Source: a virus. Taken from it: a stretch of 64,000 nt of DNA. The stretch is taken from IMG/VR virus record IMGVR_UViG_3300027801_000019, positions 3,617-67,616 of that record, one strand, 5' to 3'. This document shows positions 6,069-41,653 of the stretch, in pieces. The stretch's first letter is position 1. Each line of letters opens with the position of its first letter. A program made the position numbers and the translations under genes. The notes below the pieces were generated by a model. The model was not told where the DNA came from. It saw only the letters and a list, made by a program, of their open reading frames with translations, and searched no databases.

Positions 6069-6079
6069 TACTCTCACCT

Positions 6080-9000
6080 CTATGCTGCTCTCAATGGCAC
6101 ACCTTGCTCTATTAACTGTCGGGTCACATTGCTACTAATCTCACTTATTGCTTCATCCATTGTCAAGCCAAAGAAGTTATTTGTCATCAATAACTCAACA
6201 TTAGAATACAAGTTTTCAACACCTTTATTTACGACTTGCTTCATCATTTCACCGCTCATGTATTGAGAACGACCACCGAAAAATAATTCTTCTCGTGCGT
6301 TGGCGAAAGAGCGCATTTTTTCTTCGGCTTCGGTAAATCCATCACCTATACCTTCACCGGCTTCAAGTATTCTTGGATTCATATACTCAAAATCTTTTCC
6401 AGCTGCAATCGCTCCTTGACCAATGCTTATAAGATGAGTTATTGCCTCTTGAGTTAGGTCGGTAATTGCTATGCTACCATCAGCAATACCAGCAACAACA
6501 TCATCTATTCCTTCTTCCATATCACCGAAAATTGGGTCATAACTTTCTGTGACCCATAGCTCCTGCCCCTTTGAACCAATTACCTGCTTTTTTACTTGTC
6601 GCTCAAGTTCTTTTACCCACCCTTTCTTAAAGTCAACTGCTTGCATTTCTCCTAAATCACCAGCATTAATATGTTTAGCCAAGGTTTCAATTCCACCCTG
6701 AGTATACATGGATTCCTCAGATAAAGCCAGTCCAGTCATAACAATCTTATTTTGTCTTAGTGCTTCGTTATATGTCGTAAGTTCATTTATATTGTTTTGC
6801 CAATGGTGAAACATAGGGTCATCTTGAGCATATAGGTCTCGATGCGATTCGTATTCTGCTAATAGTGTATTTGAGTATGCTAAGTGGTCGTTCATTTGGG
6901 CAAGATTCATATTAGTTAAGTCAACTTCTGTTCCGAACTTATCTGCTAATGCTGCCGGAACTGCAAATACTTTTGCACTCTCTTCTGTTAATTCACCTAA
7001 TAAATCGCTTGTCATTCTTAAACTATCATTCATACCATCAACAACATCAGTCGCTTTGGTTGCATCAGCTGAAAAGTGTTCAACAGCCATAGCAATTCCC
7101 ATTACCACTAAAGTTATCGCTAATAGTGGAAGACAAGCTGTGACGAAACCTATCATAGCAATTTTTGCTCTTGAGGTTGCTGCAGCAAGACCGTCAAAAG
7201 AAAAAGCGGCTACAGTATTTGTTGTAGCCACAGTTTGCCCTGAAACTGCTGTTGTCAACATTTGTTGAGACATAGCAGCCATCTGGATAGTAGCGGGAAT
7301 CATAGATAGGGTCATAAGAATAATTTGCACCCTTGCAGACTTTTCTTCATCCATACCAAGAACACCACCGAAAACACCCATAGCGATAGATGCCATACCT
7401 GCGGCCATGCTTACTTGTCCTAACCTACCAGTCATCCTTGACATAGCAGCATCTGTGCTTTTCATACCAAAGAGATTTCTTCTCGTAGCCATAGCCTGCT
7501 CGGTTTGTTGCATTAAGGCAGAATCCCTTACCAGCTCAAGGTTATTTTCTGCAAGCGTAAGGGCGACTAAATCATTTATTTCTTGTTCGTGTAAAAGGTG
7601 CATCTCATCACGCAAAATACCTAACTGAATCATTTGATTGATTTTTTCAGTATCCATAGCATTAATTCTATCTTTGGCAGCAGCCTCACCCTCTAAAACA
7701 AGTCTTGCCTGTGCGTCTTGCTCAAGTAATCTTTGGCCTAATGTTAATTCTTTGACTTTGGTTGAAATCTCTTCTTGTTGCATACCACTTAGCAAACCTG
7801 CTGCAGCCACTTTCGCTTTGAGCCTCTCCCTCTCGACTTCTTCAACGAACTCGTTGAGTAATGCTTCTTCTCGTAATCTTACTAAAGTTTTTCGCCCTTG
7901 TCTTTCCCGATAGTTACCTACTGCCTGTTGTGCTGTGTTGTGTTGCTTCTGTTTCTGTGTGTAGGCTTCAAATGTCGCCATTTCTGCTTGTGCTAAAGCA
8001 TTAGCAATTTCAGTTCTTCTCATTAGGATGGTCAAGCCATTTAACTCCACACGATTCACTTCTTGCGCCCCTATAAGTTTCATTCTTTGCGTTCCAGTTA
8101 ATCGCTCGGCTAATGCTGCTTCCGCTCGTGATTTATTTAATTTTGAGTTAATAATGTCCTCTTCAGTTCGGTGCATATATAATAATTCAGTTCTAAGTGC
8201 TTTGTCTCTTTCTAATAGTGATAATGCCTCAATTTCATGGCCTGCTATCCTTAGTTTCATTTCCTCTTGTTGTTTGTATTTCATTGTTATTGCTTGGGTT
8301 AAGTGCATATGGTTTTCCATAATTTCGGTTCGAGCAATCTCAGTTAATATACCGAGATTTGTTATTTTAGCATACTCGCCTGCACTTTTTAATGTGACCC
8401 CACTGAATATTCCTTGCTTCCTATATTCATCGGTTCTCATAATTTCTTCGCCGTTGATAGCCCGTAAAACTGTTCTATGGGTTTCCATAGAGATATTAAC
8501 GGATTTCATCTGCATATACATTTGCATAGTGCTACCCATTATAGTCATCCACTGTTGCATCTCTAATACGAATGTTGACATACCTTTGAATACAGCACTA
8601 TCACCAAATGATGCAAGACCCTTTGTGAACTTGGTTTGAACATTGGTTGCAGCTGTCATAGATGGAAGAAGTTTTTGTCCTAAAATTGCTTGGTAGTGTC
8701 CTAACTCGGCTTGTGCCTCTTTATATGCTGTTGAGTTATCATCAAGAACACGATTCAATTCTTCAGTCGCTGAAGATTGGTCGTCAATTGCCATTTTAGC
8801 AAGTTCGGACATACGGTTATGGTTCTGAATCAATTTAACGAATCTTACATAGTGGTCGTTTCCTGCAACCGTTTGAACGATGTTCTGTTGTTGTTCTGCG
8901 CTTAATTGATGCCATACCTCACCTAAGTCTTCAACGATAGCAGAAAGTGGTCTTAATGCACCCGTAGTCACATCATGAGTTGCTATACCATATTCTGCTA

Positions 9001-9790
9001 ATAGGTCATTATTTTTCTGCATATTAGAACCGAGACGGCCATAAATCATACGCAAAGCCCTACCCGCCTTACCCTGTTCTTCTCCGGCCTCAATTAGTGT
9101 TGCAGACATAGCGGCCATATATGCTATTGATTCACCGGTTCTGTGTGCCTGTGATGCGAATTGATTCATAACGAAAGTCAATTGCTTCATGTTGGAAGCG
9201 GAATTGTTTTCAACGGTATTTAATTGGTCGAGAACTTCAATGGTATTAGCATAAACAGTATTTTGTTGATTTTGGGCATCCAAGTGTTTAAATTGTACTT
9301 CAGTTAAATCACCATACATAAACTTGGTTTGTTGTTGCAAGTTAATCATACGGGTCATGGCTTGTTCAGTTCCCATACCGGAAATCAAAGCAAATGTTTG
9401 ACCGAGCTTTGTTGCAGTCTCAACAGCCGCTTCACCAATCACCCCTGTTAATTGTGCCATCTTAGCACCAGCGGCGAGGGATTCTTCTGCGGTAAAACCA
9501 AAGGCTGCGCCTGTATCTATAATTCCTTCGGCAAGTGCCTTATTTTCTCCGGCAAACTTCTCGAACTCAATAGTGGCTGCAGAAAGAGCCATCGCTAATG
9601 GTGTAACTGATGAAGTTAATGCGGTGATTTGCTCACCTATACCGGCGATAGAGTCAAACATTTGACTCATAGAATCAAGGACAACAGCCTCAACAATAAG
9701 CATTTGCGCTTTAGAATCCGCTATCATACGGGAAGCATTGAATGTTCCGACTACATCAAAAAATACTCGAGGTGCGCCGGTCATTGCCAT
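6080..9790 (-). CDS. Tail tape measure protein
   Basis: 1236 aa, Ala/Met/Gln-rich helical; TP901-type core (MAAMSATLIEAGEEQGKAGRALRMI), hydrophobic segments; follows tail chaperones. Confidence 0.92.
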   Translation of the reverse strand: MAMTGAPRVFFDVVGTFNASRMIADSKAQMLIVEAVVLDSMSQMFDSIAGIGEQITALTSSVTPLAMALSAATIEFEKFAGENKALAEGIIDTGAAFGFTAEESLAAGAKMAQLTGVIGEAAVETATKLGQTFALISGMGTEQAMTRMINLQQQTKFMYGDLTEVQFKHLDAQNQQNTVYANTIEVLDQLNTVENNSASNMKQLTFVMNQFASQAHRTGESIAYMAAMSATLIEAGEEQGKAGRALRMIYGRLGSNMQKNNDLLAEYGIATHDVTTGALRPLSAIVEDLGEVWHQLSAEQQQNIVQTVAGNDHYVRFVKLIQNHNRMSELAKMAIDDQSSATEELNRVLDDNSTAYKEAQAELGHYQAILGQKLLPSMTAATNVQTKFTKGLASFGDSAVFKGMSTFVLEMQQWMTIMGSTMQMYMQMKSVNISMETHRTVLRAINGEEIMRTDEYRKQGIFSGVTLKSAGEYAKITNLGILTEIARTEIMENHMHLTQAITMKYKQQEEMKLRIAGHEIEALSLLERDKALRTELLYMHRTEEDIINSKLNKSRAEAALAERLTGTQRMKLIGAQEVNRVELNGLTILMRRTEIANALAQAEMATFEAYTQKQKQHNTAQQAVGNYRERQGRKTLVRLREEALLNEFVEEVERERLKAKVAAAGLLSGMQQEEISTKVKELTLGQRLLEQDAQARLVLEGEAAAKDRINAMDTEKINQMIQLGILRDEMHLLHEQEINDLVALTLAENNLELVRDSALMQQTEQAMATRRNLFGMKSTDAAMSRMTGRLGQVSMAAGMASIAMGVFGGVLGMDEEKSARVQIILMTLSMIPATIQMAAMSQQMLTTAVSGQTVATTNTVAAFSFDGLAAATSRAKIAMIGFVTACLPLLAITLVVMGIAMAVEHFSADATKATDVVDGMNDSLRMTSDLLGELTEESAKVFAVPAALADKFGTEVDLTNMNLAQMNDHLAYSNTLLAEYESHRDLYAQDDPMFHHWQNNINELTTYNEALRQNKIVMTGLALSEESMYTQGGIETLAKHINAGDLGEMQAVDFKKGWVKELERQVKKQVIGSKGQELWVTESYDPIFGDMEEGIDDVVAGIADGSIAITDLTQEAITHLISIGQGAIAAGKDFEYMNPRILEAGEGIGDGFTEAEEKMRSFANAREELFFGGRSQYMSGEMMKQVVNKGVENLYSNVELLMTNNFFGLTMDEAISEISSNVTRQLIEQGVPLRAA

Positions 9791-25763: not shown

Positions 25764-25927
25764 CAATAGGGGCTGGTATTGTTTGGTCTGTTGAAAGAAA
25801 GTGTCGGGAGTGCGGCTTTACAGCTGTATGCCGATATACTTCTCATAGAAAATGGTGTAAAAAATTAAGTAAAAGAGTATATTGTGGCACTATGAGGGTA
25901 GTGCGTTATCCGGAGGAAGAAGAATGA
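25760..25927 (+). CDS. 55-aa Cys-rich protein
   Basis: Hand-translated MTIGAGIVWSVERKCRECG..YCGTMRVVRYPEEEE; ATGA overlaps on both sides. Confidence 0.65.
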   Translation: MTIGAGIVWSVERKCRECGFTAVCRYTSHRKWCKKLSKRVYCGTMRVVRYPEEEE

Positions 25928-27396
25928 AAATAGGAGAAACTTTATCGTTAAAGAGAAGTAAGAAAGACCCCAAGTATTTTTATCAATGGCTTGGTTATTC
26001 ATGGGGTGAGCACATTGAAGATTGGATGAAACTTTACGGTGAAAGAGGAGATTCTATTGTTCATAGGGTTTGTATTATCGCACCACGAGACCACTCAAAA
26101 TCCACCACACTAAGGGTAGCAGTGCTTTGGTCTTGTCTATTTGAAAAGTGGCGCAACAAACCATTTACCACTTGGTTGTTTTCTGCAAGTAAAGACCTTG
26201 CTATGCGCCGATTAGAAGAAATTAGGGAGGATATGAAAAGGCATCCACAACTTCGTAGTTTAATTGACCCAAGAAGGGGTAATAAACACGCAATTCATTT
26301 TACAAACGGTTCTTGGATTAGAGCAACCGGTGTAGGGGCGGCTATTCGAGGTGAGCACCCAGCCCGTATTGTTTTTGACGATGTATTGGATGATATAGGC
26401 GACCAATCCCCAAATAACCTTAGACATTGGTTTAGGAAGAAAATCACCCCTATGTTATCCCCACAAACTTCAATTTTCGTAGTGGGAACACCTATGGCTA
26501 TGACTGACCTTTACCATACGGAGATGCTATCAAATGATGTTTGGAAAAGCACCATTACATCTGCAATCCCTAATTGGGAGGAACATAAGGCGGATAATAC
26601 AGTTAAGCCTATTGCACTTTGGGAGGCGGAAAGACCTATTGCCTTCCTAATGGAACAACGAGCCGCTATCGGTGAATTGGCATTTACCCAAGAATATTTA
26701 TGTAAGGTTGTTGATGATGAAGCTCAAGCATTCCGTAGGGAACACACTCGAGCGCATATGGACACTAATGATGTAATCCACTGGGATAACAAAGAGGAAG
26801 GTAAATATATGATAGGCTTTGACCCATCTCAAGGATTGGGGCAAGATTATACCGTTATGGTTGTCTTGCGCCAAGATGCACAAGGGTTTGTTCACTTTGT
26901 TAATATGTGGCGTAGGAATGACTTCGCACCGGATAAACAAGCCGAGATGTTAGGCGAGTGGTCTAAAAAATATAAAAGCCCTATCGCTGCAGAAGATGTT
27001 GGATTTCAAAGACTCTATGAATCCCTATTAGTGCAAAAGGGAATAACGGTTGATTATCGCCAAAGCAAGGTTTCAAATCGTGCATTAAAGCAGGCATTGA
27101 TGAATCGTCTTCGAGTTTGGTTCGAGCAAAAGAAAGTAATATTCCCCTATGGCGACGATGCAACTCGTAGGGTTGTAAATGTCATATTAGAAGAATTAGA
27201 CCACCATGTATGGAAGGAAGGGCTTATTACTGATGTGGGCAAGCATAATGATACGGTTATGGCATTTGCTCACGCAATAGACCAAATGACACATATTGAT
27301 TCTGGGAGATTGCCTATGGCTACAAGAAAAGTCTCAGGAACTTCATGGGGCGGCAATTCATCGGGTTCGGGAAGATTTGTTATTTTCGGCGATTAA
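25924..27396 (+). CDS. terL: Terminase large subunit
   Basis: Walker A APRDHSKST, Walker B IVFDD, VVGTP, nuclease IGFDP and HNDTVMA; start moved to MKIGETL. Confidence 0.93.
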   Translation: MKIGETLSLKRSKKDPKYFYQWLGYSWGEHIEDWMKLYGERGDSIVHRVCIIAPRDHSKSTTLRVAVLWSCLFEKWRNKPFTTWLFSASKDLAMRRLEEIREDMKRHPQLRSLIDPRRGNKHAIHFTNGSWIRATGVGAAIRGEHPARIVFDDVLDDIGDQSPNNLRHWFRKKITPMLSPQTSIFVVGTPMAMTDLYHTEMLSNDVWKSTITSAIPNWEEHKADNTVKPIALWEAERPIAFLMEQRAAIGELAFTQEYLCKVVDDEAQAFRREHTRAHMDTNDVIHWDNKEEGKYMIGFDPSQGLGQDYTVMVVLRQDAQGFVHFVNMWRRNDFAPDKQAEMLGEWSKKYKSPIAAEDVGFQRLYESLLVQKGITVDYRQSKVSNRALKQALMNRLRVWFEQKKVIFPYGDDATRRVVNVILEELDHHVWKEGLITDVGKHNDTVMAFAHAIDQMTHIDSGRLPMATRKVSGTSWGGNSSGSGRFVIFGD

Positions 27397-27741
27397 TATC
27401 TCAATATCCAAAGAGTCACACTCCGGACATTGAAACTCGTAATAAAGCGAGGAACTCTCTAATTCAAATACAGCCCCCGTTATTACCCACCTCTCTCCAT
27501 TATAATTGCATATTGAGCATTTCAACATGGCTAATGATAGACCATGAGCTTATTTAGAATATGTTACTTTTTGAAAAAATTAAAAAAAATTGAGCGAGGT
27601 GGTGGGCGTTCGAGATGGGCGTTATATTGGAGTTTTTGGTGCATCCTTTATAGGTGGGCATCACCACCATTCGCTATGGGCGAACCAAATTGGACACATA
27701 CTATGTGTGATGCGATTCGGATTTGTTCTATGGGTGATACC

Positions 27742-28272
27742 ATGATTGAAATGATATTGGTAATTATCGCACTTTTGAAAAGTGTCATAGTTACAAAAAC
27801 AATAGGAATAGTAGGTATAGCGGCAATTGTTGCTATGAATACGGTAAAAGGGAAAGAACCAATTAGAACGGACAAAGCATGGTATAAAATGCGTGTTTTG
27901 GACTATCTAAACGGTATAATGAACATCATGGATAATATCCATGCTAACGGGTGGACAAAGTATCAAACTATGACCATTGGCGTTCAATATGCAAAGGTTG
28001 AATTGGTATTGGTTAGGGCTATGTTGAAAGCCTATTTGGCTATGGCAAAGGTTCAAAATTGGACTTTAGCGGTTGATGTGTGCCCTAATACGGCATCATC
28101 ACCGGTGGCCAAACTAAACGCTATGATAGCAACATTGATTGATATGTCAATGACCGATGATGAAAAGAATGCTATGCTAATTAGTCAATTAGAAAAGCAA
28201 ATGGCAAAGGATGCAAAAGCATTGAAAGCATTGTTGGCAAAGGGCAAAGGTGGTGCGGGCAAAAAGGAATGA
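27742..28272 (+). CDS. Helical protein, 'KMRxxDY' paralog 1, with N-terminal hydrophobic segment
   Basis: TTTATA at 27647, GGTGA RBS before ATG 27742; start uncertain (27676 or 27835 possible). Confidence 0.65.
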   Translation: MIEMILVIIALLKSVIVTKTIGIVGIAAIVAMNTVKGKEPIRTDKAWYKMRVLDYLNGIMNIMDNIHANGWTKYQTMTIGVQYAKVELVLVRAMLKAYLAMAKVQNWTLAVDVCPNTASSPVAKLNAMIATLIDMSMTDDEKNAMLISQLEKQMAKDAKALKALLAKGKGGAGKKE

Positions 28273-28281
28273 TAGGTGACT

Positions 28282-28380
28282 ATCATACGGTGCAAATCCG
28301 TTAGAATGTGGTTAGGGTCGCACACCACCGCCAAAGTGCGACCACCTACGGGAAAGGGTAGGGCAAACGGAATGGTTTGC
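28282..28380 (+). ncRNA. Candidate structured RNA type A, copy 1
   Basis: ACGG-TGCAAAT-CCGT, GGTCGCAC/GTGCGACC, CCTAC/GTAGG and GCAAAC/GTTTGC hairpins. Confidence 0.45.
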
Positions 28381-28393
28381 ACACCCCCCGAAT

Positions 28394-28828
28394 ATGGATA
28401 ACCAAACCCAAACCAAACCCAAACCGACCACCACCATGAAAGCACTTTTCATGTTTGATGCACACTTTAGCATCAATAATGAAATGTTGGCAACCTATGA
28501 TATTGGCAACATACCATCACTAACCTTTGGATATACCAATGGTGATGATATAGAACCGGCGCAAATACACCGTATGGTTGCGTCTATTGGCCACCGATTA
28601 GCAAAGACGCAACAACCTACCACCGATGAAAACGGGGATGAATGCGACCAATGTATGACCCATCACATTGACGGGGAATTATGCAATCAATCATCATGCG
28701 ACCATGATTATGATATTTTAGAATCCATTGATGGATGGGTTTCATGTCAATGGTGTGGATTTGAAAGGGGATTGGATGCCGATGATTTTCATGTTGAATA
28801 TGACCCAACCGACAAAGACGAATATTGA
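28394..28828 (+). CDS. Acidic protein with Cys/His clusters
   Basis: CDQC, CDHDY, CQWCG; start may be 28436. Confidence 0.6.
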   Translation: MDNQTQTKPKPTTTMKALFMFDAHFSINNEMLATYDIGNIPSLTFGYTNGDDIEPAQIHRMVASIGHRLAKTQQPTTDENGDECDQCMTHHIDGELCNQSSCDHDYDILESIDGWVSCQWCGFERGLDADDFHVEYDPTDKDEY

Positions 28829-29118
28829 AAGGATTGATTGAAATGATACTACCTAACAAAACAAATGAAAGGCCGACCAAAGGGGGTGATATGATGGCTA
28901 TAACACAAATAAACATGGCGTGTTCACAATGTATTGACAAAGCGTTTAATTTAGGAAAAACCACAATGGTAAAAGATTTCTTGGATATTAACAATTGTAA
29001 TTTCATTGTTGGGCGACCAACCCACATGATAATAGATTATCCAACAATCTATCTATGTGACGAATGTTTAGTGGAATATAAAAGAACAATGGCTTTTTTC
29101 AAAGCGTATGTTGTTTGA
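28825..29118 (+). CDS. Zn-finger-like small protein
   Basis: CSQC..CDEC; likely start about 28891 after GGTGA. Confidence 0.6.
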   Translation: MKGLIEMILPNKTNERPTKGGDMMAITQINMACSQCIDKAFNLGKTTMVKDFLDINNCNFIVGRPTHMIIDYPTIYLCDECLVEYKRTMAFFKAYVV

Positions 29119-29140
29119 ATAAACACTACTAATTCAATAA

Positions 29141-29237
29141 TTCAAATATAGACATCAATGCGTTGATGTTAGGGTGTTACGCCACCCTTTCGCCCCTATC
29201 GGTTGTGCGCAATCGGTGGGGGCTACCCTTTTTTTTT
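29141..29237 (+). terminator. Three-hairpin 3' element with poly-T (RNA type B, copy 1)
   Basis: Hairpins at 29152-29169, 29171-29188 and 29192-29223, then T9. Confidence 0.65.
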
Positions 29238-29704
29238 GCTTTTTGCTTTTCTTTTTTTTGATGTAGTAAAACAATCATTACTATATCGGATGGGGTAAAG
29301 GATAATCCCTCGAAAAATATAACGAAAAACTGTGCAGTAAATCGTGCAGTATTTTCATTTCAACTTATGTTGGGATTGGTTCTGCCTTACGAAAAAAACA
29401 TTTGGAGAATGCTGCAGTCTCACAATAACCTGCAGTCTTATCAGTAACACCGCCCTGCTCTCTCTTCTTTGGCATAGGGTAAGGCTTTCCCTTATTATTA
29501 AAAAAAGTCGGATTTTGTCACCCAGAAGTTCCAGGTATATAAAGGCTGGCCTCCACCATCCTCGCTTGGTAGTGCCGATTTGGGTCGCCGAAAAGTCCAG
29601 GTATATATACCCTTTCTCCGGTTGTTCAGAAAAGTATCACGAACATACTATATACTATGGGCGTATATTTATATTTAGGGGCAAAGACCCCACCGGTGAT
29701 AAAT

Positions 29705-30043
29705 ATGTCCGATGAAAAAGTAGCCAAAAAAACGATGAATGAAACCCTACGAATGCGTATTCGGGATGTAAATAATTTAGTTACAAACCTAATGCAATTT
29801 GTGGACACGCTAATGACCAAAAACGAATGGGTCGCCGTATTAGGCCTATTAGTAGCAAACAAAGCCCTATATGATGCCGTAGCACACCGATTTGGTGCAA
29901 AAGTGGATATAGCGCAAAAGATTGACGAATTAATTGAATCCGTCACATTGCTAACCATGTCAAAAGCCGCTATCAAAGCAAAGGCAAAGGCCGAATTGAA
30001 CGAACAAATCAAAGCACTAAAGGATGCACTAAAGGAACTATGA
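29705..30043 (+). CDS. Helical protein, paralog 2
   Basis: LRMRIRDV motif; TATA at about 29668, GGTGA RBS. Confidence 0.75.
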   Translation: MSDEKVAKKTMNETLRMRIRDVNNLVTNLMQFVDTLMTKNEWVAVLGLLVANKALYDAVAHRFGAKVDIAQKIDELIESVTLLTMSKAAIKAKAKAELNEQIKALKDALKEL

Positions 30044-30052
30044 TTTAGGATA

Positions 30053-30162
30053 ATCATTCGGTGCAAATCCGGCAACGACCCGATGGGGTGGCGGGCGAAT
30101 AATGTCCACCCCAACCGTAGGCCGGTGGCCGTCATAGGGAAATGGCGGTCATCGGTTTTTTT
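30053..30162 (+). ncRNA. Candidate structured RNA type A, copy 2, ending in terminator-like hairpin
   Basis: ATCATTCGGTGCAAATCCG (18/19 to copy 1), GGGGTGG/CCACCCC stem, long GU-containing hairpin and T-run. Confidence 0.45.
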
Positions 30163-30352
30163 ATTTGTCATATTTAACATAGGCTTTTTTAAGCCAACGA
30201 TACCTGACCTCCCTCGAAAAAAATAAACTGCTTATCGTGCAGTATCTCGGCATACCTTAAAACCAGTTTTGTTAAAAAAGTAACTTCATGGCACACCCCC
30301 TAAGTTTGTATTCGCATTCACATTCATTCTAATCACCTAACTTTATTCAATA

Positions 30353-30589
30353 TTATGAGATTGCTACACCGTTTTCATCAAAGTCATAGGCGCACAAGTC
30401 GTCACATACCCAACAATACAATTCGTATGCGTTAAGTCGTTCTAATTCGGACAAGTCTATTACCATATAATCCATGTTTCCATCCCACGAGAACGCCGTC
30501 ATCATTGACACCGTATCTTTTCCGCAAGTTTTACATAACCATATAAACTTATATTCTATTTCTTTCAATCCCAAGTTTTTATTTTCCAT
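30353..30589 (-). CDS. Zn-finger-like small protein (cassette gene)
   Basis: CKTC..CWVC; own TATA element. Confidence 0.7.
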   Translation of the reverse strand: MENKNLGLKEIEYKFIWLCKTCGKDTVSMMTAFSWDGNMDYMVIDLSELERLNAYELYCWVCDDLCAYDFDENGVAIS

Positions 30590-30862
30590 TTTTAATCATT
30601 CCTACCCCGTCGGGGCTACATACCCATACACGCCACACCCTATAATGGTAGCGATTCGGCAAGTTTTACGAGATAGCAACCTATTTATCTTAGAGCCGCC
30701 CCCGAGTTAGGGGTGGGGATTAGTCTCGAAAAAAACAAAATGTCTTCTGTGCAGTTTATAAGTTCGGTGACTTACGGGGAGTTTTGAATAAAAAAGGAGG
30801 TGGTATGGTTGTGAATACATTTATAGTATTATTTAAGTTCATACAATCACCTAAGTTTTTAT

Positions 30863-31180
30863 TTAACGGGGTAAAGGATAATCATAAAGAGTTGCACCAA
30901 CAATTGCGTCATATGCGTAGCACAAATTGTTATTGACAATCCAAAACTCAGACACCAAATCAATCATAATAAAATGGTCGTCGGGTTGGTTTGGTATATC
31001 AAACTCAGGCACTATCCAATAACCCATCGGTATGCACATACCATCAAAGTTTGTTCCTAAGTTCATCATCATGCAAAACTCATCATCATATCCACGAATT
31101 GCCATAGCAATTTGACCGTAGGGCATGATAATTAAGCCGCTTTTTTCATCGTTGTTTTCGTATATTTCTAAGTTTTTCAT
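30863..31180 (-). CDS. Acidic hypothetical protein (cassette gene)
   Basis: 105 aa; upstream region nearly duplicates that of 30353-30589. Confidence 0.7.
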   Translation of the reverse strand: MKNLEIYENNDEKSGLIIMPYGQIAMAIRGYDDEFCMMMNLGTNFDGMCIPMGYWIVPEFDIPNQPDDHFIMIDLVSEFWIVNNNLCYAYDAIVGATLYDYPLPR

Positions 31181-31476
31181 TTTCGGTTTTCCCCCCTTTT
31201 GGGTTAGTTACCCATACACGCCGTAGCATATAATGGTTCGGATTGGGTGAGTTTTACGAGCTTTGGTGGTATTAGTTAAGCCGCCCCCCAAGATAAGGGG
31301 ATGGGATAAGATTACTCGAAAACAAAACTCGCTAACTCGTGCAGTATATTTTTCCTTCAAAAAACGCATTCGCCTGATGTGTTGGTTGTCATGTTGTTGT
31401 CAAAAAGTGACCTTATGGTGGGGGAATCCCACCGGATTGATATTGGAAGAACCTTTTCATATTACCACCTATTTAT

Positions 31477-32085
31477 TCAAAGACTTGGTGGTGCGTTATA
31501 TTCCCAATCGCATGACCTACAAAACACTAACAATCCGTCTTCGGAGTCGTCATAGTTAAAGTAATCTTCGCCAGCCGCACCATTGATAACTTCTTCACAC
31601 ATATTACAAAGAATGATTATGCTTTTTTTCCTTCCATCCTTTTCATTTTTATAGGTGTGTCCAACAAGTTTGTGTGATTTACAACGGTGGTCGTAGTAGC
31701 CCGCTTCCCCAGTCACATATGAATGTTCTAATGTGTATTCGGAAATAACTTCATCACGATGAACCATTTCATTGCACACAAAGCACTTCACAGTGATACC
31801 ATGTCGCTTTTCAAAGTCGGCCTTCATTAGTGCTTTGCCCTTTTGTTGTCGGTCAAATACCTTGTATGCCCGTAGTAGTATTTGCATACGGACAATTTCT
31901 TGTTCGTAGTATTGCTTTAATACCACCATTGATACACCAATAGGTATTTTGCTTTCCAGCGCACTTATTAATTCGTCGTTTGTGGTTGGGTATGTTAGAT
32001 TATTGCTAACACACACCAACTTCAGAAACGCCATTTCCTTTTCATTCAATTTTATATTCTTCAATTGTTTATTTTCGTTATTCAT
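31477..32085 (-). CDS. Zn-finger-like protein (cassette gene)
   Basis: CFVC, CKSH, CNMC, CRSC; AGGAGGT RBS. Confidence 0.75.
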   Translation of the reverse strand: MNNENKQLKNIKLNEKEMAFLKLVCVSNNLTYPTTNDELISALESKIPIGVSMVVLKQYYEQEIVRMQILLRAYKVFDRQQKGKALMKADFEKRHGITVKCFVCNEMVHRDEVISEYTLEHSYVTGEAGYYDHRCKSHKLVGHTYKNEKDGRKKSIIILCNMCEEVINGAAGEDYFNYDDSEDGLLVFCRSCDWEYNAPPSL

Positions 32086-32424
32086 GTTTTTTACCTCCTT
32101 TTTAGTCGCATCGGGCTTTGTTATTGTCGCCCGCTACAACCACTGCTGGGGGTATGTGGGTATAAAGGTTTATATTGGGCGTCTTAGTGGAGCTTTGGTG
32201 GTATTATATGAGGTGCGCCTCCGGCCTCAAGTTTTTAGGATAAGGTCTCGAAAAAAAACTATGACAAGTCGTGCAGTATATTTCACTGTCAGAAACTCGA
32301 AAGACGGCGAATCCTTAGCATATGTAAAAAAGCGATAAAAAAGTTAAATCCAATAGGTGAACTTAATGTGGGGAATATCCCACCGATTCAAACATTATCT
32401 TAATAGTCATGGTATCACTTCAGT

Positions 32425-32952
32425 TCAATATGACCTATCGTGGGTTGGCGGGAAGTGTGTGTAGTCATTTGTAGTGACTAAATCCATACCATACCTAAAG
32501 TGTAATTCCGCCTCAACTGCATCTAATACACCATTACCAAACATACCCTTTAGAATGCCCGTTAAAACTTCAGGTATTCCGCCGCCGATGTGATGCGCTA
32601 ATCCAACTTCGCAGATTAACTTTATTTCACAATCGGTTGTGTGGCGTGGGTCAAAGTTAACTTGTAGGTTGTGTGCCACTAATTGTAGCGTTACAACTTC
32701 CCTGTTTGACATAATCCACACTTCAGGTATTTGCGGGGTTAAACATTCCCGACATTTGTAGGCTTGCGGAGTAGGTTGTTCCGATACATCTTCAGATTCC
32801 CCGTCACCACATAACTTACCGCAGTAGTCGCATTCACGACACCCGCAACCATGTATTTCACCAAATTGCCTTATGTGCCATTCGTAATGTTCCTTTGATA
32901 GAACATGACCGCAACCACATACAATTTCATTCGTTTTTTTATCTTCTTTCAT
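32425..32952 (-). CDS. Zn-finger-like protein (cassette gene)
   Basis: CGCGH, CGCRECDYC, CREC; AGGAGG RBS. Confidence 0.75.
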   Translation of the reverse strand: MKEDKKTNEIVCGCGHVLSKEHYEWHIRQFGEIHGCGCRECDYCGKLCGDGESEDVSEQPTPQAYKCRECLTPQIPEVWIMSNREVVTLQLVAHNLQVNFDPRHTTDCEIKLICEVGLAHHIGGGIPEVLTGILKGMFGNGVLDAVEAELHFRYGMDLVTTNDYTHFPPTHDRSY

Positions 32953-33254
32953 TATTTTTGCCTCCTGTTTTTTTGGATGGCCGCCGTTGCGACCATGTTA
33001 GGCTGTGGGGGTAGTAGCATATATAATGTTCTATTAGGCAAGTATAGCGAGCTAAACGCACTTTATTCATCTTGCCGCCTCGTCGAGTTAGGCAAGTTTA
33101 AAGCCTACGAAAAAACTTCACAAATAATCGTGCAGTTTATCCGCTTGTGTGACGACTGTTAAGTTTCATGCAATGCTACGCCTTACAAAACATGAAGGCA
33201 GTTAGGGATGCCAGCCCGAGCTGATGGTGGGTGATACAAGTTACCATCAATTGA

Positions 33255-33569
33255 TTAAGCACCGTAGGATGCGCAGTCGCAACCACATAATTCAGTCATA
33301 TACAACCATTCAGGTGTAGCAATTTCAGAAGGGTCATGCCCACAAAGACAATGTGAGAATGAGCCATCTTTGTTGTAGGAAGTGACGGTGTAATTACCAG
33401 CGGCCATTTTTGCATTGAGCTTTTTAATATCAGCCAAGACTTTTACAACACGAACACATGGTTTGCAGTAAGCAAGCATTGTGAAGGTTGGGTGGCCTAC
33501 ATAAGGTATATCCACCATTTCATCGGAAGGAAACCATTCGGAGCAGCCGCAGCACATATCAGGATTCAA
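33255..33569 (-). CDS. Cys-rich small protein
   Basis: CCGC..CKPC..CLCGH. Confidence 0.6.
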   Translation of the reverse strand: MNPDMCCGCSEWFPSDEMVDIPYVGHPTFTMLAYCKPCVRVVKVLADIKKLNAKMAAGNYTVTSYNKDGSFSHCLCGHDPSEIATPEWLYMTELCGCDCASYGA

Positions 33570-34282
33570 GATAAATCAACCCCATAATTAACAGGTTTTG
33601 GTGAGCAAAGGTCGCCGGTGGCAGAAAGACAAGGCCCTTCAGAATAATAACCACAGCGAAGACAAATTGGTTTAGCAAGATGTATTTTGGTATAACAGTC
33701 TAAACAATATTTTGAGTCGTTATTACCGAGCATCATTGTCTTTTCCGAGAACCATTCATCGCAGTGAAAGCATTCATCCTTTGGTGAGCCCCATACATCG
33801 GCCATAAGAATCTTTGGTTCACACCAGATTCGGTGTGCGCCGCACAGGTGGATTTCATATTTTAAGACAGTTCTATGACTATCAGTTTGGGCAAAGAATG
33901 CGAAGTCCATAAGAATGCAGCCGCAGTCAAGTGTTTGTTGTTTGCCTAACTTTTGAAGATTGTATTTGGCGACAGTTGCAGCGTGGTCATCCCAGCATTC
34001 GGTGTCATCATGAGGGATGCAATCGTCATCATAATAGTCGGCGTAGCAAGGTGAGCAAAGGAGTTCATTGCCACCGTCGCACCCAGCCACATTGATGTAT
34101 TGAGTAATTGGTCTATCGCAAGTATCGCAATTGCCGATTATGTTCCCCAAGTTGGTGGGGATTCGAGAATCAGAGGTCAATCGCAAGTCGGGCATCGGGG
34201 GTGTGTCGGGTCGTTCCGCCATAACAAGACATCGGGGGCATTGCATATATACCCTGCGTATGGCCGAAGTGGGGTGCATCAC
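33566..34282 (-). CDS. Multi-Zn-finger-like protein
   Basis: Six or more CxxC pairs; start uncertain. Confidence 0.6.
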   Translation of the reverse strand: MMHPTSAIRRVYMQCPRCLVMAERPDTPPMPDLRLTSDSRIPTNLGNIIGNCDTCDRPITQYINVAGCDGGNELLCSPCYADYYDDDCIPHDDTECWDDHAATVAKYNLQKLGKQQTLDCGCILMDFAFFAQTDSHRTVLKYEIHLCGAHRIWCEPKILMADVWGSPKDECFHCDEWFSEKTMMLGNNDSKYCLDCYTKIHLAKPICLRCGYYSEGPCLSATGDLCSPKPVNYGVDLS

Positions 34283-34628
34283 GATTGAGTTTTAGCGAGT
34301 TAAAGGGATATACGAGTGTGTATCACATTCCACCTCATCGGATGGTTGGGGGTGGGGGGAATAAATGTCTCGAAAACTATTTTTTAAATATCGCACAGTT
34401 TAATGCAGTCTCTATCTTGGCCGCCGCCTCAAGTTTTTTATTTGAGTTGAGCTCGAAAAAAACTTAAGTAAAATCGTGCAGTTAAGTAAAACGAAAATAC
34501 GCCATTTAGCTCGTGCCTCGATGATGATGCACCGCACTTGCCTATACCGGCATCTATATATAGTAGTGATGCGTAAGACTATCATGGGCAAAGTGAAGAC
34601 CAGCCCTACAAAAAGGAGGCAAAAAATA

Positions 34629-35129
34629 ATGAAACAAGATAAGAAAAATCCGAAAGCGGAGAAAGAAGCAAAGGAAGCACCACCAGCTGAAGCTGTTGCT
34701 GTAACTTACTTGCCACCCACCGAGAACCAGTGGAAGGTAATGAAGATGCGCAACCGAGATTACCTGGATGCTAACAAGAAGATGATTGACGAAGAACTGG
34801 TGCTACAAGCAGCAGCTCTTGCAGTTGATGAGAAAAACCGAGGGATGGTAACATTCTCCCCTTATCAGGCGAGCCTTATGGTAATCGCCCTCGAGGCGGC
34901 GTTGTTAGTCTTCACTTCAATGTGCTCAGAAGCAATTCGTGTAAAATCTGTCTTCATTAATTTGAAGGCGGATTTCGGACTGCAGATAGCTCGATTGAAC
35001 GGACTCATTGATGGCACAGTTAAGGCAATGACACCTGCTGAGAAAATTGCGAACAAGGCCGCTCTCGAAGAGAAGATGGCTGAAAGCGCAAAGCTCCAAG
35101 CGGAAATATTAGCCTTGAGTCAAGTCTGA
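34629..35129 (+). CDS. Helical protein, paralog 3
   Basis: MKMRNRDY motif; TATA at about 34555, AGGAGG RBS at 34614. Confidence 0.75.
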   Translation: MKQDKKNPKAEKEAKEAPPAEAVAVTYLPPTENQWKVMKMRNRDYLDANKKMIDEELVLQAAALAVDEKNRGMVTFSPYQASLMVIALEAALLVFTSMCSEAIRVKSVFINLKADFGLQIARLNGLIDGTVKAMTPAEKIANKAALEEKMAESAKLQAEILALSQV

Positions 35130-35147
35130 TTCTGGAAGCTCTTTCCA

Positions 35148-35249
35148 TTCAAGTAAACTTGTGAATGCGTTCACAAGCCGAGCACAAAAGTAAGTCTCGT
35201 TTCGCTCCCCTTGAGGCTGAGGCCTTGAGGGGAGCTCCATTTTTTTTTT
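35148..35249 (+). terminator. Three-hairpin 3' element with poly-T (RNA type B, copy 2)
   Basis: CTTGTGAA-TGCG-TTCACAAG, CGAG..CTCG, 14-bp hairpin 35204-35235, T-run. Confidence 0.65.
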
Positions 35250-35719
35250 GACTTATTTTTAATCAAGGCAGAAATGCTATAAATCTCGAGACTCTCGAAA
35301 AATACTCGCTATTGCTTGGCAGAAGATTAAAATCTTGAGATATAACGAAAACACCGAAAATCAAATCGTGCTCAAAAAAAGCGGGTCGAGTGTGTTTCAT
35401 AGTAGGAGTTTGTTTAACATCTCGCTATAAGGTATCGCCCCTCGCCTTCTCATATATTAAAATAGTAAGACAGTAAATCCATGCAGAAAATCTCCAGCCA
35501 ATCAATACAAGACTACCATCTTATCCCCGAAGTTACACAAGGCAAAGAGCCGAAACTCCGCACCCGAGCGGTTAACTCATATATGATGCACGAACCCCAT
35601 AGGTTTATATAGTTTGACGATAATCTCATATTAGGTGGAACGACAGAAAACTTACAGTAATCGGTAGTATCTTGTCTCCCCAAAAAATAACTGAAGATGA
35701 AAAAACGGAAGGTGAAAAA

Positions 35720-36193
35720 ATGTATGATAACAAGGATTACTTCTCCCTCGAGGAGATAGAAAGAAATGGCAGAAGCTGTCGTTATGAAGTTTGTGTGGCC
35801 GATGGAAGAATCGGTCTCCAAGTAGTAACATTCAGGACAGATTCATGCTATCAAGTTGAAATTGGTTTAGGTGTTAAGTCACCTCTATATACCGGAGGCA
35901 CATGGGTCACAAAGACCAAGATTGCTTATTGGGATGGAGCTGGTGCGGATAGGCAACCTGAGGAAAAGGAACAAGTGCAAGACCATCTAAATCAGGTATC
36001 TTGGCACATGGGCAGCGTCTGGAATGTTCGAGATGTTGAATCCTCAGTCTTTGACTTTATCTTATCTGATTACGGGTCAGTTTCTATTGGTATAGCTCAA
36101 CTCAAAGCGGTTAGGCTTCAGATGATGATGGCAAAGCAACTTCAATTACAGCAAGCGTTCTTACAGGACTTTATCGCAGGTGATGCAATATGA
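35720..36193 (+). CDS. Hypothetical protein, first gene of early operon
   Basis: TTTATATA at about 35604; GGTGA RBS before ATG 35720. Confidence 0.7.
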   Translation: MYDNKDYFSLEEIERNGRSCRYEVCVADGRIGLQVVTFRTDSCYQVEIGLGVKSPLYTGGTWVTKTKIAYWDGAGADRQPEEKEQVQDHLNQVSWHMGSVWNVRDVESSVFDFILSDYGSVSIGIAQLKAVRLQMMMAKQLQLQQAFLQDFIAGDAI

Positions 36194-40615: not shown

Positions 40616-41653
40616 ATGACAAAAAAAACGAATAAATCTAAGTCCAATTTGGCACGAGACAAAGTAATTAAAGAAATGGCTGACCTTGTAAGCGAGGCAA
40701 TCAAAAAGGGCGAGAAGCCTTGGCTAAGGCCTTGGGATACTTCCAAATGCACAAGTGGTCTTGCTCATAATGTGGTTTCAAAGAAACCTTATCGGGGTGT
40801 AAATCAGTTTTATTTGGGTCTATGCTCGATTGACTTTGAGTTTGCATCATTCAAACAATGGTCTGAGGTTGGTCGCAAACACGCTATCAAAAATGGTGAG
40901 TTTGAGATGGCTACCGATAAAGACGGCAAATCCTACAAGAAGACTACCACATACTACGGAGTTCAGAAAGGTGCAAAGGCTGTAACTGTTGTTTATTTCA
41001 CCATGTTGAAATTAGAAGACAAGGACAATCCCGATGAAATTAACATGATTCCTTTACTCAAGTGGCATAAAGTGTTCGGAAGAAGTGATACCAACATACC
41101 TGCCCCAATCATTGAGAAGCCAACGGAGGATGAAATGCCTACCTTTACCGAGATTCAAGAAAGAATTGAAGGGGAAATGCACGATTGGATGGAGTCGGAG
41201 GGTATTGGTTTTGCCGAAGGTGGTGAACGAGCCTTCTATCGCTATTCAACAGACCACATTCAAATGCCAGATAAAATAGCATTCCCTTCTGGTTATGCTT
41301 ATATGCCTACACTATTTCACGAATCAGTTCACTCAACCGGACACAAGAAGCGTTTAAACCGTAAGATGGGTATGGGTATGGGAAGTGATGAGTATGCTTT
41401 CGAGGAATTGGTAGCGGAGATGGGTGCATCCCTTCTTTGTCGCCACCACAATATTCTTCCAACCGATGCGTTGGAGGATGGTTTAGAAAACCAAGTATCA
41501 TACATAGCACATTGGCTCAAGCAATTGAAGTCAAATCCAAAAACAATTATTCAAGCAGGTAGTAAAGCGCAGCGAGCGGTGGACTATATACTTGGAACAA
41601 CATTTGAAGACAATAAAAACGATGAAAAAAAAGGAGATATAAAAGATGAATGA
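40616..41653 (+). CDS. ardC: ArdC-like antirestriction protein (ssDNA-binding domain plus zincin-like metallopeptidase)
   Basis: PWLRPW, PYRGVN, FASFKQW, VQKGAKA; FHESVHSTGH and YAFEELVAEMGA. Confidence 0.9.
   Translation: MTKKTNKSKSNLARDKVIKEMADLVSEAIKKGEKPWLRPWDTSKCTSGLAHNVVSKKPYRGVNQFYLGLCSIDFEFASFKQWSEVGRKHAIKNGEFEMATDKDGKSYKKTTTYYGVQKGAKAVTVVYFTMLKLEDKDNPDEINMIPLLKWHKVFGRSDTNIPAPIIEKPTEDEMPTFTEIQERIEGEMHDWMESEGIGFAEGGERAFYRYSTDHIQMPDKIAFPSGYAYMPTLFHESVHSTGHKKRLNRKMGMGMGSDEYAFEELVAEMGASLLCRHHNILPTDALEDGLENQVSYIAHWLKQLKSNPKTIIQAGSKAQRAVDYILGTTFEDNKNDEKKGDIKDE

Follow-up and report, generated by a model that had tools for sequence, protein, structure and literature searches.

Three divergent paralogs of a small helical protein family in an uncultivated marine tailed virus

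Three dispersed genes of an uncultivated marine tailed virus, here called A, B and C, are, on sequence evidence, real but distantly related paralogs. They belong to one family of small, all-alpha proteins that stand alone. The DNA analysed is a window of 64,000 nt, which covers positions 3,617-67,616 of the record IMGVR_UViG_3300027801_000019, from a genome of 67.6 kb. The family is new and coherent, comprises 42 protein clusters and occurs only within a single lineage of marine tailed viruses, which are abundant and uncultivated. What this adds is an annotation with good support, not a new mechanism.

Homology and characteristics of the family

An earlier note on this DNA had described A, B and C as dispersed paralogs of an unrecognised helical protein. 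Its gene coordinates are correct, all three genes lie on the + strand, and the motifs that it quoted are present (YKMRVLDYL / LRMRIRDVN / MKMRNRDYL and, further on, MTDDEK / MSKAAI / MTPAEK).

27742..28272, + strand: paralog A, 176 aa from ATG 27742; short subfamily; family profile E 4e-33
29705..30043, + strand: paralog B, 112 aa; short subfamily; family profile E 1e-24
34629..35129, + strand: paralog C, 166 aa from an ATG led by AGGAGG; long subfamily; family profile E 3e-30

A profile search finds exactly these three copies in the genome. Upstream of A, the ATG at 27676 is in-frame and open, and C would have 181 aa if it started at ATG 34584, also in-frame and open, which is the start used by its database orthologues P0013 and P0015. 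The start of B is preceded by GGTGAT. A begins with a hydrophobic segment (KD19 2.23) followed by the family domain, and the central helix of C is hydrophobic (KD19 2.03).

Pairwise BLASTP among the three proteins gave no significance (E 0.081, 0.18 and 0.67), and shallow profiles were weak, with 22% (A-C), 70.7% and 0.9% (B-C). Significance was reached after orthologues found on contigs of related viruses had been added to each profile; hhalign then gave 97.8% for A-B (E 1e-12, 103 columns), 96.4% for AB-C (E 1e-9, 116 columns) and 92% for B-C. The pairwise HMM alignment proposed in the earlier note bears out the paralogy once orthologues are added. Reversed-alignment controls (n=3) stayed at or below 0.9%, and 20/20 column-shuffled controls at or below 0.7%. 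A jackhmmer search of 4254 ORFs from related loci merged A and B, with no unrelated match below E 0.01. It is scarcely credible that the three proteins are non-homologous and resemble each other through helical or coiled-coil composition, as the BLASTP results and the shallow A-C and B-C values might suggest, given that the enriched profiles stay in register across 100-116 columns, starting at MRxxD and reaching the C-terminus, that control scores are 9-18 against 45-80 for the real comparisons, and that a single joint profile pulls out a coherent set of 42 proteins of the same size class.

That joint profile, run against 1.84 billion protein representatives, retrieved the 42 clusters at E <= 1e-3, all of them stand-alone proteins of 80-240 aa with one full-length match each. 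The MRxxD motif occurs in 41/42 members; the other hallmarks are the MTxxEK turn and a last helix of amphipathic character. There are two old subfamilies, a short one (A/B type) and a long one (C type), the latter having additional helical insertions and an N-terminus rich in Pro, Ala, Lys and Glu. The pI is not conserved (4.9-9.8).

The family remains unrecognised, as the earlier note had it, in sequence and fold searches alike, and no housekeeping family matched. For A, B and C, nothing was found below E 0.03 in PHROG or at E <= 0.1 in Pfam, and NCBIfam gave matches only far under its cut-offs; across the 42 members, Pfam returned three different singleton matches only. Neither B nor C had a tblastn match in 50,697 phage records of GenBank. 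With A, the IMG/VR locus search retrieved only near-identical contigs, and with B alone or C alone nothing; ESM Atlas gave no usable match. The best PDB sequence match, 5ziz_A (flagellin / FlgL N-terminal helices), has E 0.0028 for the whole chain, but its best stretch has i-E 0.66 and is limited to the MTxxEK-plus-helix part, and we treat it as a coiled-coil-like resemblance.

The structural model of B (pLDDT 83.7) predicts a soluble protein of four helices, with MRxxD on helix 1 and the MTxxEK turn leading into the amphipathic last helix. Foldseek of this model against the PDB gave no match below E 0.08 and none reaching E 0.001. The lowest E belonged to ATBAG1 (4hwi_B; E 0.081, TM 0.35, rmsd 7.0), a three-helix-bundle match that is not significant, and a BAG domain was rejected. 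The best geometry was that of ribosomal protein S20 (TM 0.47-0.50, rmsd 3.0-3.9, 84-95 columns, E 0.5-1.7); this candidate was also rejected, the S20 model (PF01649) having zero matches in the 67.6 kb genome at E <= 10 and matches in 10/14 control genomes. The bS20 and BAG three-helix bundles are like B at the level of fold geometry only, whereas the family has a fourth helix, variable charge and no Pfam match.

Upstream boxes and 3' regions

Each gene has its own TATA-like box, as had been claimed, and the DNA behind each is rich in hairpins (fold z -2.8, -2.1 and -3.7 after A, B and C).

27647..27654, + strand: TATA-like box TTTATAGG of A, read by eye, 21 nt before the in-frame ATG 27676
28270..28390, + strand: 3' region of A, four predicted hairpins (stop-codon hairpin 28270-28285; 7-nt-loop hairpin 28287-28301; GC stem in 28310-28346; hairpin 28349-28390); MFE -45.3, z -2.8
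28394..29118, + strand: two small Cys-rich ORFs, of 144 and 97 aa, located ahead of the first terminator after A
29192..29232, + strand: predicted terminator closing the A unit, 14-bp stem followed by a T-run
29310..34481, + strand: bipartite motif TCGWAAA-N10-26-YGTRCAG, sited in the spacers that flank B and in the one preceding C
29533-29542 and 29599-29609, + strand: further boxes AGGTATATA upstream of B, read from the sequence
29664..29677, + strand: TATA-like stretch of B, read likewise
30041..30167, + strand: 3' region of B, with the hairpins shared with A, GC stem 30084-30113 and predicted terminator 30119-30158 with T-run; dG -26.3
34555..34562, + strand: TATA box TATATATA of C, 21 nt before the in-frame, open ATG 34584
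35127..35249, + strand: 3' region of C, three small hairpins followed by predicted terminator 35204-35235 with T-run; dG -27.8, z -3.7

The +21 spacing is common to A, C and the promoter-like class TATGTTTATATR of this genome. The exact box TATGTTTATATR occurs six times upstream of replication genes, always on the + strand, and five of these boxes have ATGG at +21 or +22 (10 matches against 1.9 expected). In 7/12 family loci, including C (+21), a script detected a TATA-like box with an ATG 19-25 nt further on; it missed the A box TTTATAGG. The island provides clean examples of the promoter-like and terminator signals of this lineage.

The predicted elements after B (30119-30158), C (35204-35235) and the A unit (29192-29223) have the make-up of intrinsic terminators, the T-run being defined as at least 6 T in 8 nt. 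A hairpin plus T-run follows 7/7 B/C-position genes from four genomes and 1/5 A-position genes (the window, L004, L007, L008, L010 and L011 were surveyed); at the B and C positions, the GC-rich stem has about 8-17 bp and a loop of 4-6 nt, and lies 78-116 nt past the stop codon. The hairpins of A have no T-run after them, and the next ORF begins at 28394. Since the Cys-rich ORFs, which match no PHROG or NCBIfam family, sit between A and the next terminator, they are probably co-transcribed with A. The 3' regions differ from plain intrinsic terminators in that those of B and C carry one to three extra hairpins ahead of the terminator, while in A and B the stop codon lies within the first hairpin, and a 7-nt loop is conserved in the second. 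This pair, the stop-codon hairpin and the GGTGCAAATCC hairpin, lies at 30041-30071 in B and forms repeat family D15, with 78% identity between A and B over 32 nt, the second hairpin keeping its 7-nt loop. In the A/B alignment of the 3' regions, the third stem is one column out of step. The indels of one DNA contig fall within the loop 30097-30102 of the B region.

The earlier note had further proposed that proteins and adjacent RNAs act together as modules, an idea that the analysis does not support. We consider it decidedly unlikely that the proteins are nucleic-acid-binding regulators, active for instance in anti-termination or autoregulation together with the 3' hairpins or a spacer motif. 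The 32-nt element common to A and B is in keeping with such a role, as is the conservation of the 110 nt after A, which are about 89% identical to L004 (99/111 aligned bases) vs about 65% in the A domain; moreover, similar hairpins stand behind both short-type genes of L008, and the best geometric folds are S20 bundles, yet at E 0.5-1.7. The spacer motif TCGWAAA-N10-26-YGTRCAG can also be counted in its favour, as it flanks B on both sides and precedes C, and occurs in three genomes. It has six matches (starts at 29310, 30214, 30726, 31316, 32248 and 34453), all on the + strand, compared with a mean of 0.11 and a maximum of 2 in shuffles, and there are four + strand matches each in L008 and L010. 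Against these points, the hairpins of B and C look like terminators, and the A/B element is absent after C and restricted to near-identical relatives: its pattern has 13 matches in IMG/VR, of which 3 are close relatives and 10 are unrelated and at chance level. Rfam gave no match at gathering across the 64 kb window, and its 8 matches in 27000-36000 (E 0.81-8.7) are all at least 19 bits below gathering, none of them in the A or B 3' regions; no tRNA or tmRNA was found. The Pfam S20 model matched nothing in the genome, as described above. In addition, the spread of pI, with 13/42 members acidic, speaks against a general nucleic-acid-binding role. The structured RNAs behind the genes look for the most part like ordinary terminator hairpins, while the A/B element and the strand-specific spacer motif could conceal an RNA or DNA role.

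Genome context and evolution

A follows directly after the terminase gene, and the family island, which is gene-sparse, lies between terminase and the replication genes. This is the only region in which spacers of 120-540 nt separate the genes. Synteny is kept in L008, L010 and L011, with both subfamilies in the same order. In a profile search of the ORFs from all related loci collected, the family was matched only where terminase identity is at least 78%, and relatives at 62-65% lack it in their loci; the family-less loci inspected (L034, L057 and L020) have other genes downstream of terminase.

The suggestion that the family is diversified agrees with a dN/dS of 0.34-0.43 for A vs 0.085 for terminase, and with a DNA identity of about 65% in the A domain vs about 87% in its flanks. 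Because dN/dS is below 1, the faster evolution may reflect a loosening of constraint and not an arms race. The genes resemble the moron-like or early genes of variable islands in tailed phages: they encode small stand-alone proteins without known domains, each has its own promoter-like box and terminator, the island differs between relatives and dN/dS is elevated. Unlike moron-like genes, two subfamilies of one family keep a fixed order in several genomes, a behaviour unlike that of single interchangeable cassettes.

In phage T4, the internal proteins have a common conserved N-terminal segment that targets them to the capsid. These proteins, IPI-IPIII, are several small divergent proteins per genome, with a conserved N-terminal segment and polymorphic loci, and the present family is alike in this. 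In the T4 type, the prohead protease cleaves the N-terminal targeting peptide, and the proteins reside in the capsid. A virion-associated function, in which A, B and C would be internal or ejected, scaffold-like or decoration proteins with the MRxxD segment as a targeting or processing signal, seems unlikely but deserves some weight. A adjoins terminase, small size, an all-helical build and an amphipathic helix at the C-terminus are frequent in scaffolds too, the N-terminal motif is conserved where the remainder has diverged, and contigs of an RNA library lie over A and C. However, unlike in IPI-IPIII, the similarity spans the full length of the proteins and not the N-terminus alone; the genes are on the strand opposite the portal-to-tail module (3-24044) and far from it, the family is missing at the loci with 62-65% terminase identity, and no PHROG structural family matches.

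Possible roles and host

We tentatively favour an explanation that may hold as a whole, in which A, B and C belong to a new paralog family of accessory, partner-binding proteins encoded in autonomous units, the hairpins being terminators. By their layout, the genes form separate expression units, every one with a TATA-like box upstream; B and C are closed by strong predicted terminators of hairpin and T-run, and the A unit would run through the two Cys-rich ORFs to the terminator at 29192. The proteins would be accessory rather than core, and would bind other proteins, of the host or of the virus, through the conserved MRxxD face of helix 1, which could meet a constant partner, with the variable surfaces elsewhere. 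Their likeliest role may be to redirect or block a host function, in takeover or counter-defence. The proposal of the earlier note, first-expressed proteins for host takeover or anti-defence, would fit the genome context. The 3' hairpins would stop transcription and protect 3' ends, and separate RNA partners would not be involved.

Membrane association, with A as a membrane anchor and a role in egress, lysis timing or superinfection exclusion, is very unlikely. The hydrophobic N-terminal segment of A and the hydrophobic central helix of C are in line with it; but the segment occurs in just 4/42 members (A, P0010, P0011 and P0034), it is missing from the A-position orthologues of L007, L008 and L010, and the model of B is that of a soluble helical protein. 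A more elaborate version of the partner-binding explanation is a long shot: the short and long subfamilies, which occur together in every related genome, would form a hetero-oligomer via their last amphipathic helices, tethered to the membrane where A has its anchor. Its target would be a conserved host machine, probably an archaeal one, gripped by the invariant MRxxD face, and subunit dosage would be set by the two hairpins shared at the 3' ends, that of the stop codon and that with the 7-nt loop. If true, the assembly would represent a new class of complex for takeover or counter-defence. Members of the family are short, soluble-looking and easy to express, and are good candidates for host-interaction or counter-defence screens.

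In TBP/TFB-type (archaeal-like) promoters, transcripts start about 22 nt past the TATA box. The fixed 21-22 nt spacing from TATA to ATG hints at an archaeal host, while the SD-like GGTGAT and AGGAGG and the hairpin terminators are also compatible with a bacterial one. The terminase found no relative in 185,579 species genomes, and a portal search gave no match. PolB is closest to that of haloarchaeal tailed viruses (23% identity), and the clamp loader to that of T4-like phages of bacteria (29-33%). Magrovirus genomes are described as 90-110 kb long (PMC5434244, PMC11706807, PMC12999244), so that a virus of 67.6 kb is not an obvious member. In the RNA library X20, some contigs match portions of A and of C exactly; contaminating DNA is a possible source of these contigs, and stretches of the region that the library leaves uncovered carry no information. 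Pieces of 31 nt from the RNA library at 29229-29260 are T-rich low-complexity matches.

A family of stand-alone helical proteins

The small helical proteins A, B and C had been described in an earlier note as three dispersed paralogs of an unrecognised family, and the three open reading frames (ORFs) are found at the coordinates that it gave. Each protein has few close marine relatives, which are unnamed and carry no Pfam domain.

27742-28272, plus strand: A, 176 aa, hydrophobic segment at the N-terminus
29705-30043, plus strand: B, 112 aa
34629-35129, plus strand: C, 166 aa

The relationship is invisible to pairwise BLASTP (E values of 0.081, 0.18 and 0.67), and hhalign comparison of profiles made from the close relatives alone gave weak results (A-B 70.7%, A-C 22%, B-C 0.9%). 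We collected 80 loci around related terminases and searched their ORFs for family members, and divergent members were found at syntenic places in L007, L008, L010, L011 and L012. Run on 4254 ORFs, jackhmmer brought A and B together and returned nothing unrelated below E 0.01. With the orthologue-enriched alignments, hhalign gave 97.8% for A-B (E 1.2e-12, 103 columns), 96.4% for AB-C (E 1.1e-9, 116 columns) and 92% for B-C (E 6.7e-7), in register from the MRxxD motif through the C-terminus. The real scores were 45-80, against 13-18 for three reversed alignments (at most 0.9%) and 9-18 for twenty column-shuffled C alignments (at most 0.7%). These matches, together with the clean controls, indicate that the paralogy is real, in agreement with the earlier proposal; it is scarcely credible that the similarity is due to chance, as the BLASTP values by themselves would allow.

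A joint profile from an 18-sequence family alignment was run against 1.84 billion cluster representatives and matched 42 proteins at E ≤ 1e-3, of which 28 reached E ≤ 1e-10. The members span 80-240 aa and each is matched as a single full-length stretch, which argues that the domain stands alone; fused forms were not seen among the 42. The MRxxD motif is present in 41 of the 42 aligned members, with the Asp invariant and the Met and Arg nearly so, and the last helix is preceded by a further signature, a Met/Leu-Thr/Ser-x-x-Glu/Asp-Lys turn. The AlphaFold model of B, with the 18-sequence alignment as input, has a mean pLDDT of 83.7 and a pTM of 0.69, and contains four helices (residues 2-30, 39-63, 67-84 and 87-111). 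Foldseek found no match to this model in the PDB below E 0.08; the top rows were generic helical bundles, namely a BAG domain, ribosomal protein S20 (TM 0.47-0.50) and designed bundles. Identity with S20 was rejected, given that the Pfam S20 model has no match in the genome.

The family is also unrecognised by sequence, as had been claimed: PHROGs, Pfam and NCBIfam hold no match, tblastn of B and C found nothing in 50,697 GenBank phage records, and the ESM Atlas gave no match. The PDB sequence search returned coiled-coil-type matches only, the best being FlgL (E 0.0028, with an i-E of 0.66 for the stretch). No account of the family was met in the literature on marine archaeal viruses, in a search that was not aimed at it and does not imply absence from print; supplementary tables of magrovirus and Poseidoniales-virus papers could list the lineage. 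A, B and C thus belong to a new, stand-alone, four-helix family.

We tentatively regard A, B and C as accessory proteins that may act by protein-protein contacts, with host takeover or counter-defence as the most likely role. The conserved helix face bearing MRxxD would meet a constant partner, and elsewhere the surfaces would be variable and inconsistent in charge. A membrane-associated function, to which the N-terminal hydrophobic segment of A might point, seems quite improbable; such a segment occurs in 4 of the 42 members.

The accessory island and its evolution

The window covers bases 3617-67616 of an IMG/VR virus record; the full record has 67,616 bases and is complete according to CheckV. 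The family genes lie in an island between the terminase and the replication module, with spacers of 120-540 nt (27400-36000); elsewhere the genome is tightly packed. An exonuclease-like gene is also on the plus strand.

3-24044, minus strand: structural module (portal-like protein, tail proteins, two giant ORFs)
25882-27396, plus strand: large terminase
about 27.4-36 kb: island with A, B and C
from about 36 kb, plus strand: replication module (ArdC-like protein, AAA+ clamp-loader-like protein, family B DNA polymerase)

Association of A, B and C with the virion is rather unlikely: the structural module lies on the opposite strand.

A search with the family profile found exactly three copies in the genome. 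Relatives keep the layout of terminase, short-type (A/B) gene, small ORFs, second short-type gene, minus-strand Cys-rich block and one or two long-type (C) genes. The family genes that share this layout are at the following positions in three terminase loci.

L010: 3281, 4865 and 8055
L008: 6274 and 7916
L011: 15570 and 16573, in tandem

In a quick maximum-likelihood tree of 51 rows, the long clade contains all four C-position genes and the short clade all A- and B-position genes (SH-aLRT 98 for each). Within the short clade there is no grouping by A or B position, so the A/B split may be younger, repeated or homogenised. The two subfamilies are old and are retained as a set in the accessory island, where each gene forms an autonomous unit. 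The profile search of the ORFs of all collected loci did not find the family in those of the many relatives with 62-65% terminase identity; three of these loci were inspected (L034, L057 and L020), and unrelated genes occupy the same place in them.

The family evolves faster than core genes. Compared with L004, the closest divergent relative, dN/dS is 0.34-0.43 for A and 0.085 for the terminase. DNA identity to L004 is about 87% in the flanks, drops to about 65% across the A domain (269 of 411 aligned bases) and recovers to about 89% over the 110 nt past the A stop. Small, fast-evolving accessory proteins of variable phage islands are a familiar kind; the novelty lies in the conserved set of two subfamilies and in its signals.

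Eight loci (L005, L006, L007, L012, L031, L045, L051 and L081) stop 0.2-3.6 kb past the terminase. For six of them (L005, L006, L007, L012, L031 and L051), the contig range shows this point to be the end of the contig as well, which suggests that assemblies break in the variable island.

Other genes of the genome were also observed. The minus-strand block at 30353-34282 comprises five or six genes for small Cys-rich (CxxC) proteins. The genes have strong AGGAGG sites, and a repeated module some 150 nt long (repeat families D1, D5 and D7) lies upstream of each one. Orthologues of at least two of them occur in L010, which indicates that these ORFs are real genes; profile searches gave no family match for their products. 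A 43-codon plus-strand ORF (30805-30936) with a strong AAGGAGGT site overlaps the minus-strand gene 30863-31180 in antisense at that gene's 3' end, and could be a small gene or chance. At 40616-41653, an ArdC-like N-terminal domain is fused to a zincin-like metallopeptidase (PF08401 and PF18818), a candidate anti-restriction protein. Two very large minus-strand ORFs (3-9790) stand at the end of the structural module; one runs off the window and is at least 2025 aa long, and the other has 1236 aa.

Hairpins, spacer motif and promoter-like signals

The observation that hairpin-rich DNA follows each gene was confirmed, with the 3' regions of A, B and C folding better than shuffles (z of -2.8, -2.1 and -3.7, respectively). 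Terminators are the dominant features of these regions.

29192-29223: terminator of the A unit, downstream of two Cys-rich ORFs
30119-30158: terminator past B
35204-35235: terminator past C

A hairpin (-23 to -28 kcal/mol) followed by a T-run occurs 78-116 nt past the stop in all seven B- and C-position genes of four genomes, and at only one of five A-position genes. The 3' regions of A and B have 32 nt in common (78% identical), comprising one hairpin that contains the stop codon and another whose loop is UGCAAAU, followed at the same place in both by a GC stem of differing sequence. This element exceeds a terminator; it is restricted to near-identical relatives, and the 3' hairpins of the two short-type genes of L008 likewise resemble each other. 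The likeness may come from gene conversion between paralogs, or from a common 3' UTR control or stability element, and is not evidence of a separate RNA gene. Rfam has no match and there are no tRNAs in the window. The proposal that the proteins act with adjacent RNAs as protein-RNA modules is the least supported part of the earlier note, and was not upheld. One metatranscriptomic library contains exact-match contigs over 28102-28252 (A), and 34609-34842 and 35032-35182 (C), compatible with transcription and short of proof of it.

A bipartite motif, TCGWAAA-N10-26-YGTRCAG, recurs in the island spacers from 29.3 to 34.5 kb, always on the plus strand regardless of the orientation of the flanking genes. 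One copy directly precedes the 43-codon ORF.

Window (29310-34481), plus strand, site starts: 29310, 30214, 30726, 31316, 32248, 34453
Window, looser copies: near 33108 and 35346
L008: 7524, 8420, 9044, 10541
L010: 4603, 5371, 6410, 7789

The window holds six matches against 0.11 expected from shuffles (maximum 2). Read on the minus strand, the motif is a weak hairpin with a T-run, and it is a candidate promoter, minus-strand terminator or protein-binding site. That A, B and C are nucleic-acid-binding regulators tied to this motif or to the 3' hairpins is doubtful; pI values within the family lie between 4.9 and 9.8, with 13 of the 42 members acidic.

A TATA-like box was found upstream of every one of A, B and C, as the first reading had it.

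27647-27654, plus strand: A box, TTTATAGG, 21 nt to an in-frame ATG at 27676
34555-34562, plus strand: C box, TATATATA, 21 nt to the ATG at 34584

The ATG at 34584 is in frame with C and open, and the annotations of the orthologues P0013 and P0015 start there; the later ATG, at 34629, has a strong AGGAGG before it. In 7 of 12 family loci, a scripted scan located a box and, 19-25 nt downstream of it, an ATG. Most of these ATGs are out of frame and may therefore mark the transcript start instead of a start codon.

The spacing recurs in a further, sharply defined promoter-like class, TATGTTTATATR, which has six exact copies at 47-63.5 kb, all on the plus strand, and 10 matches when one mismatch is allowed (1.9 expected).

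47106, 51354, 53764, 59774, 61126, 63427, plus strand: exact copies
35600: copy with one mismatch

Five of the six exact copies are followed at +21 or +22 by an ATGG with which the downstream gene begins; at the remaining copy (61126) there is a GTG at +23. The spacing from TATA box to ATG fits archaeal-style initiation about 22 nt past the box, with leaderless messages, and that of TATGTTTATATR, judged from sequence, suggests TBP-type initiation and an archaeal host. A bacterial host is possible from the SD-like sequences, the hairpin terminators and the T4-like clamp loader. Host searches across species genomes found nothing, and the family B DNA polymerase is closest to those of haloarchaeal tailed viruses, at 23% identity.
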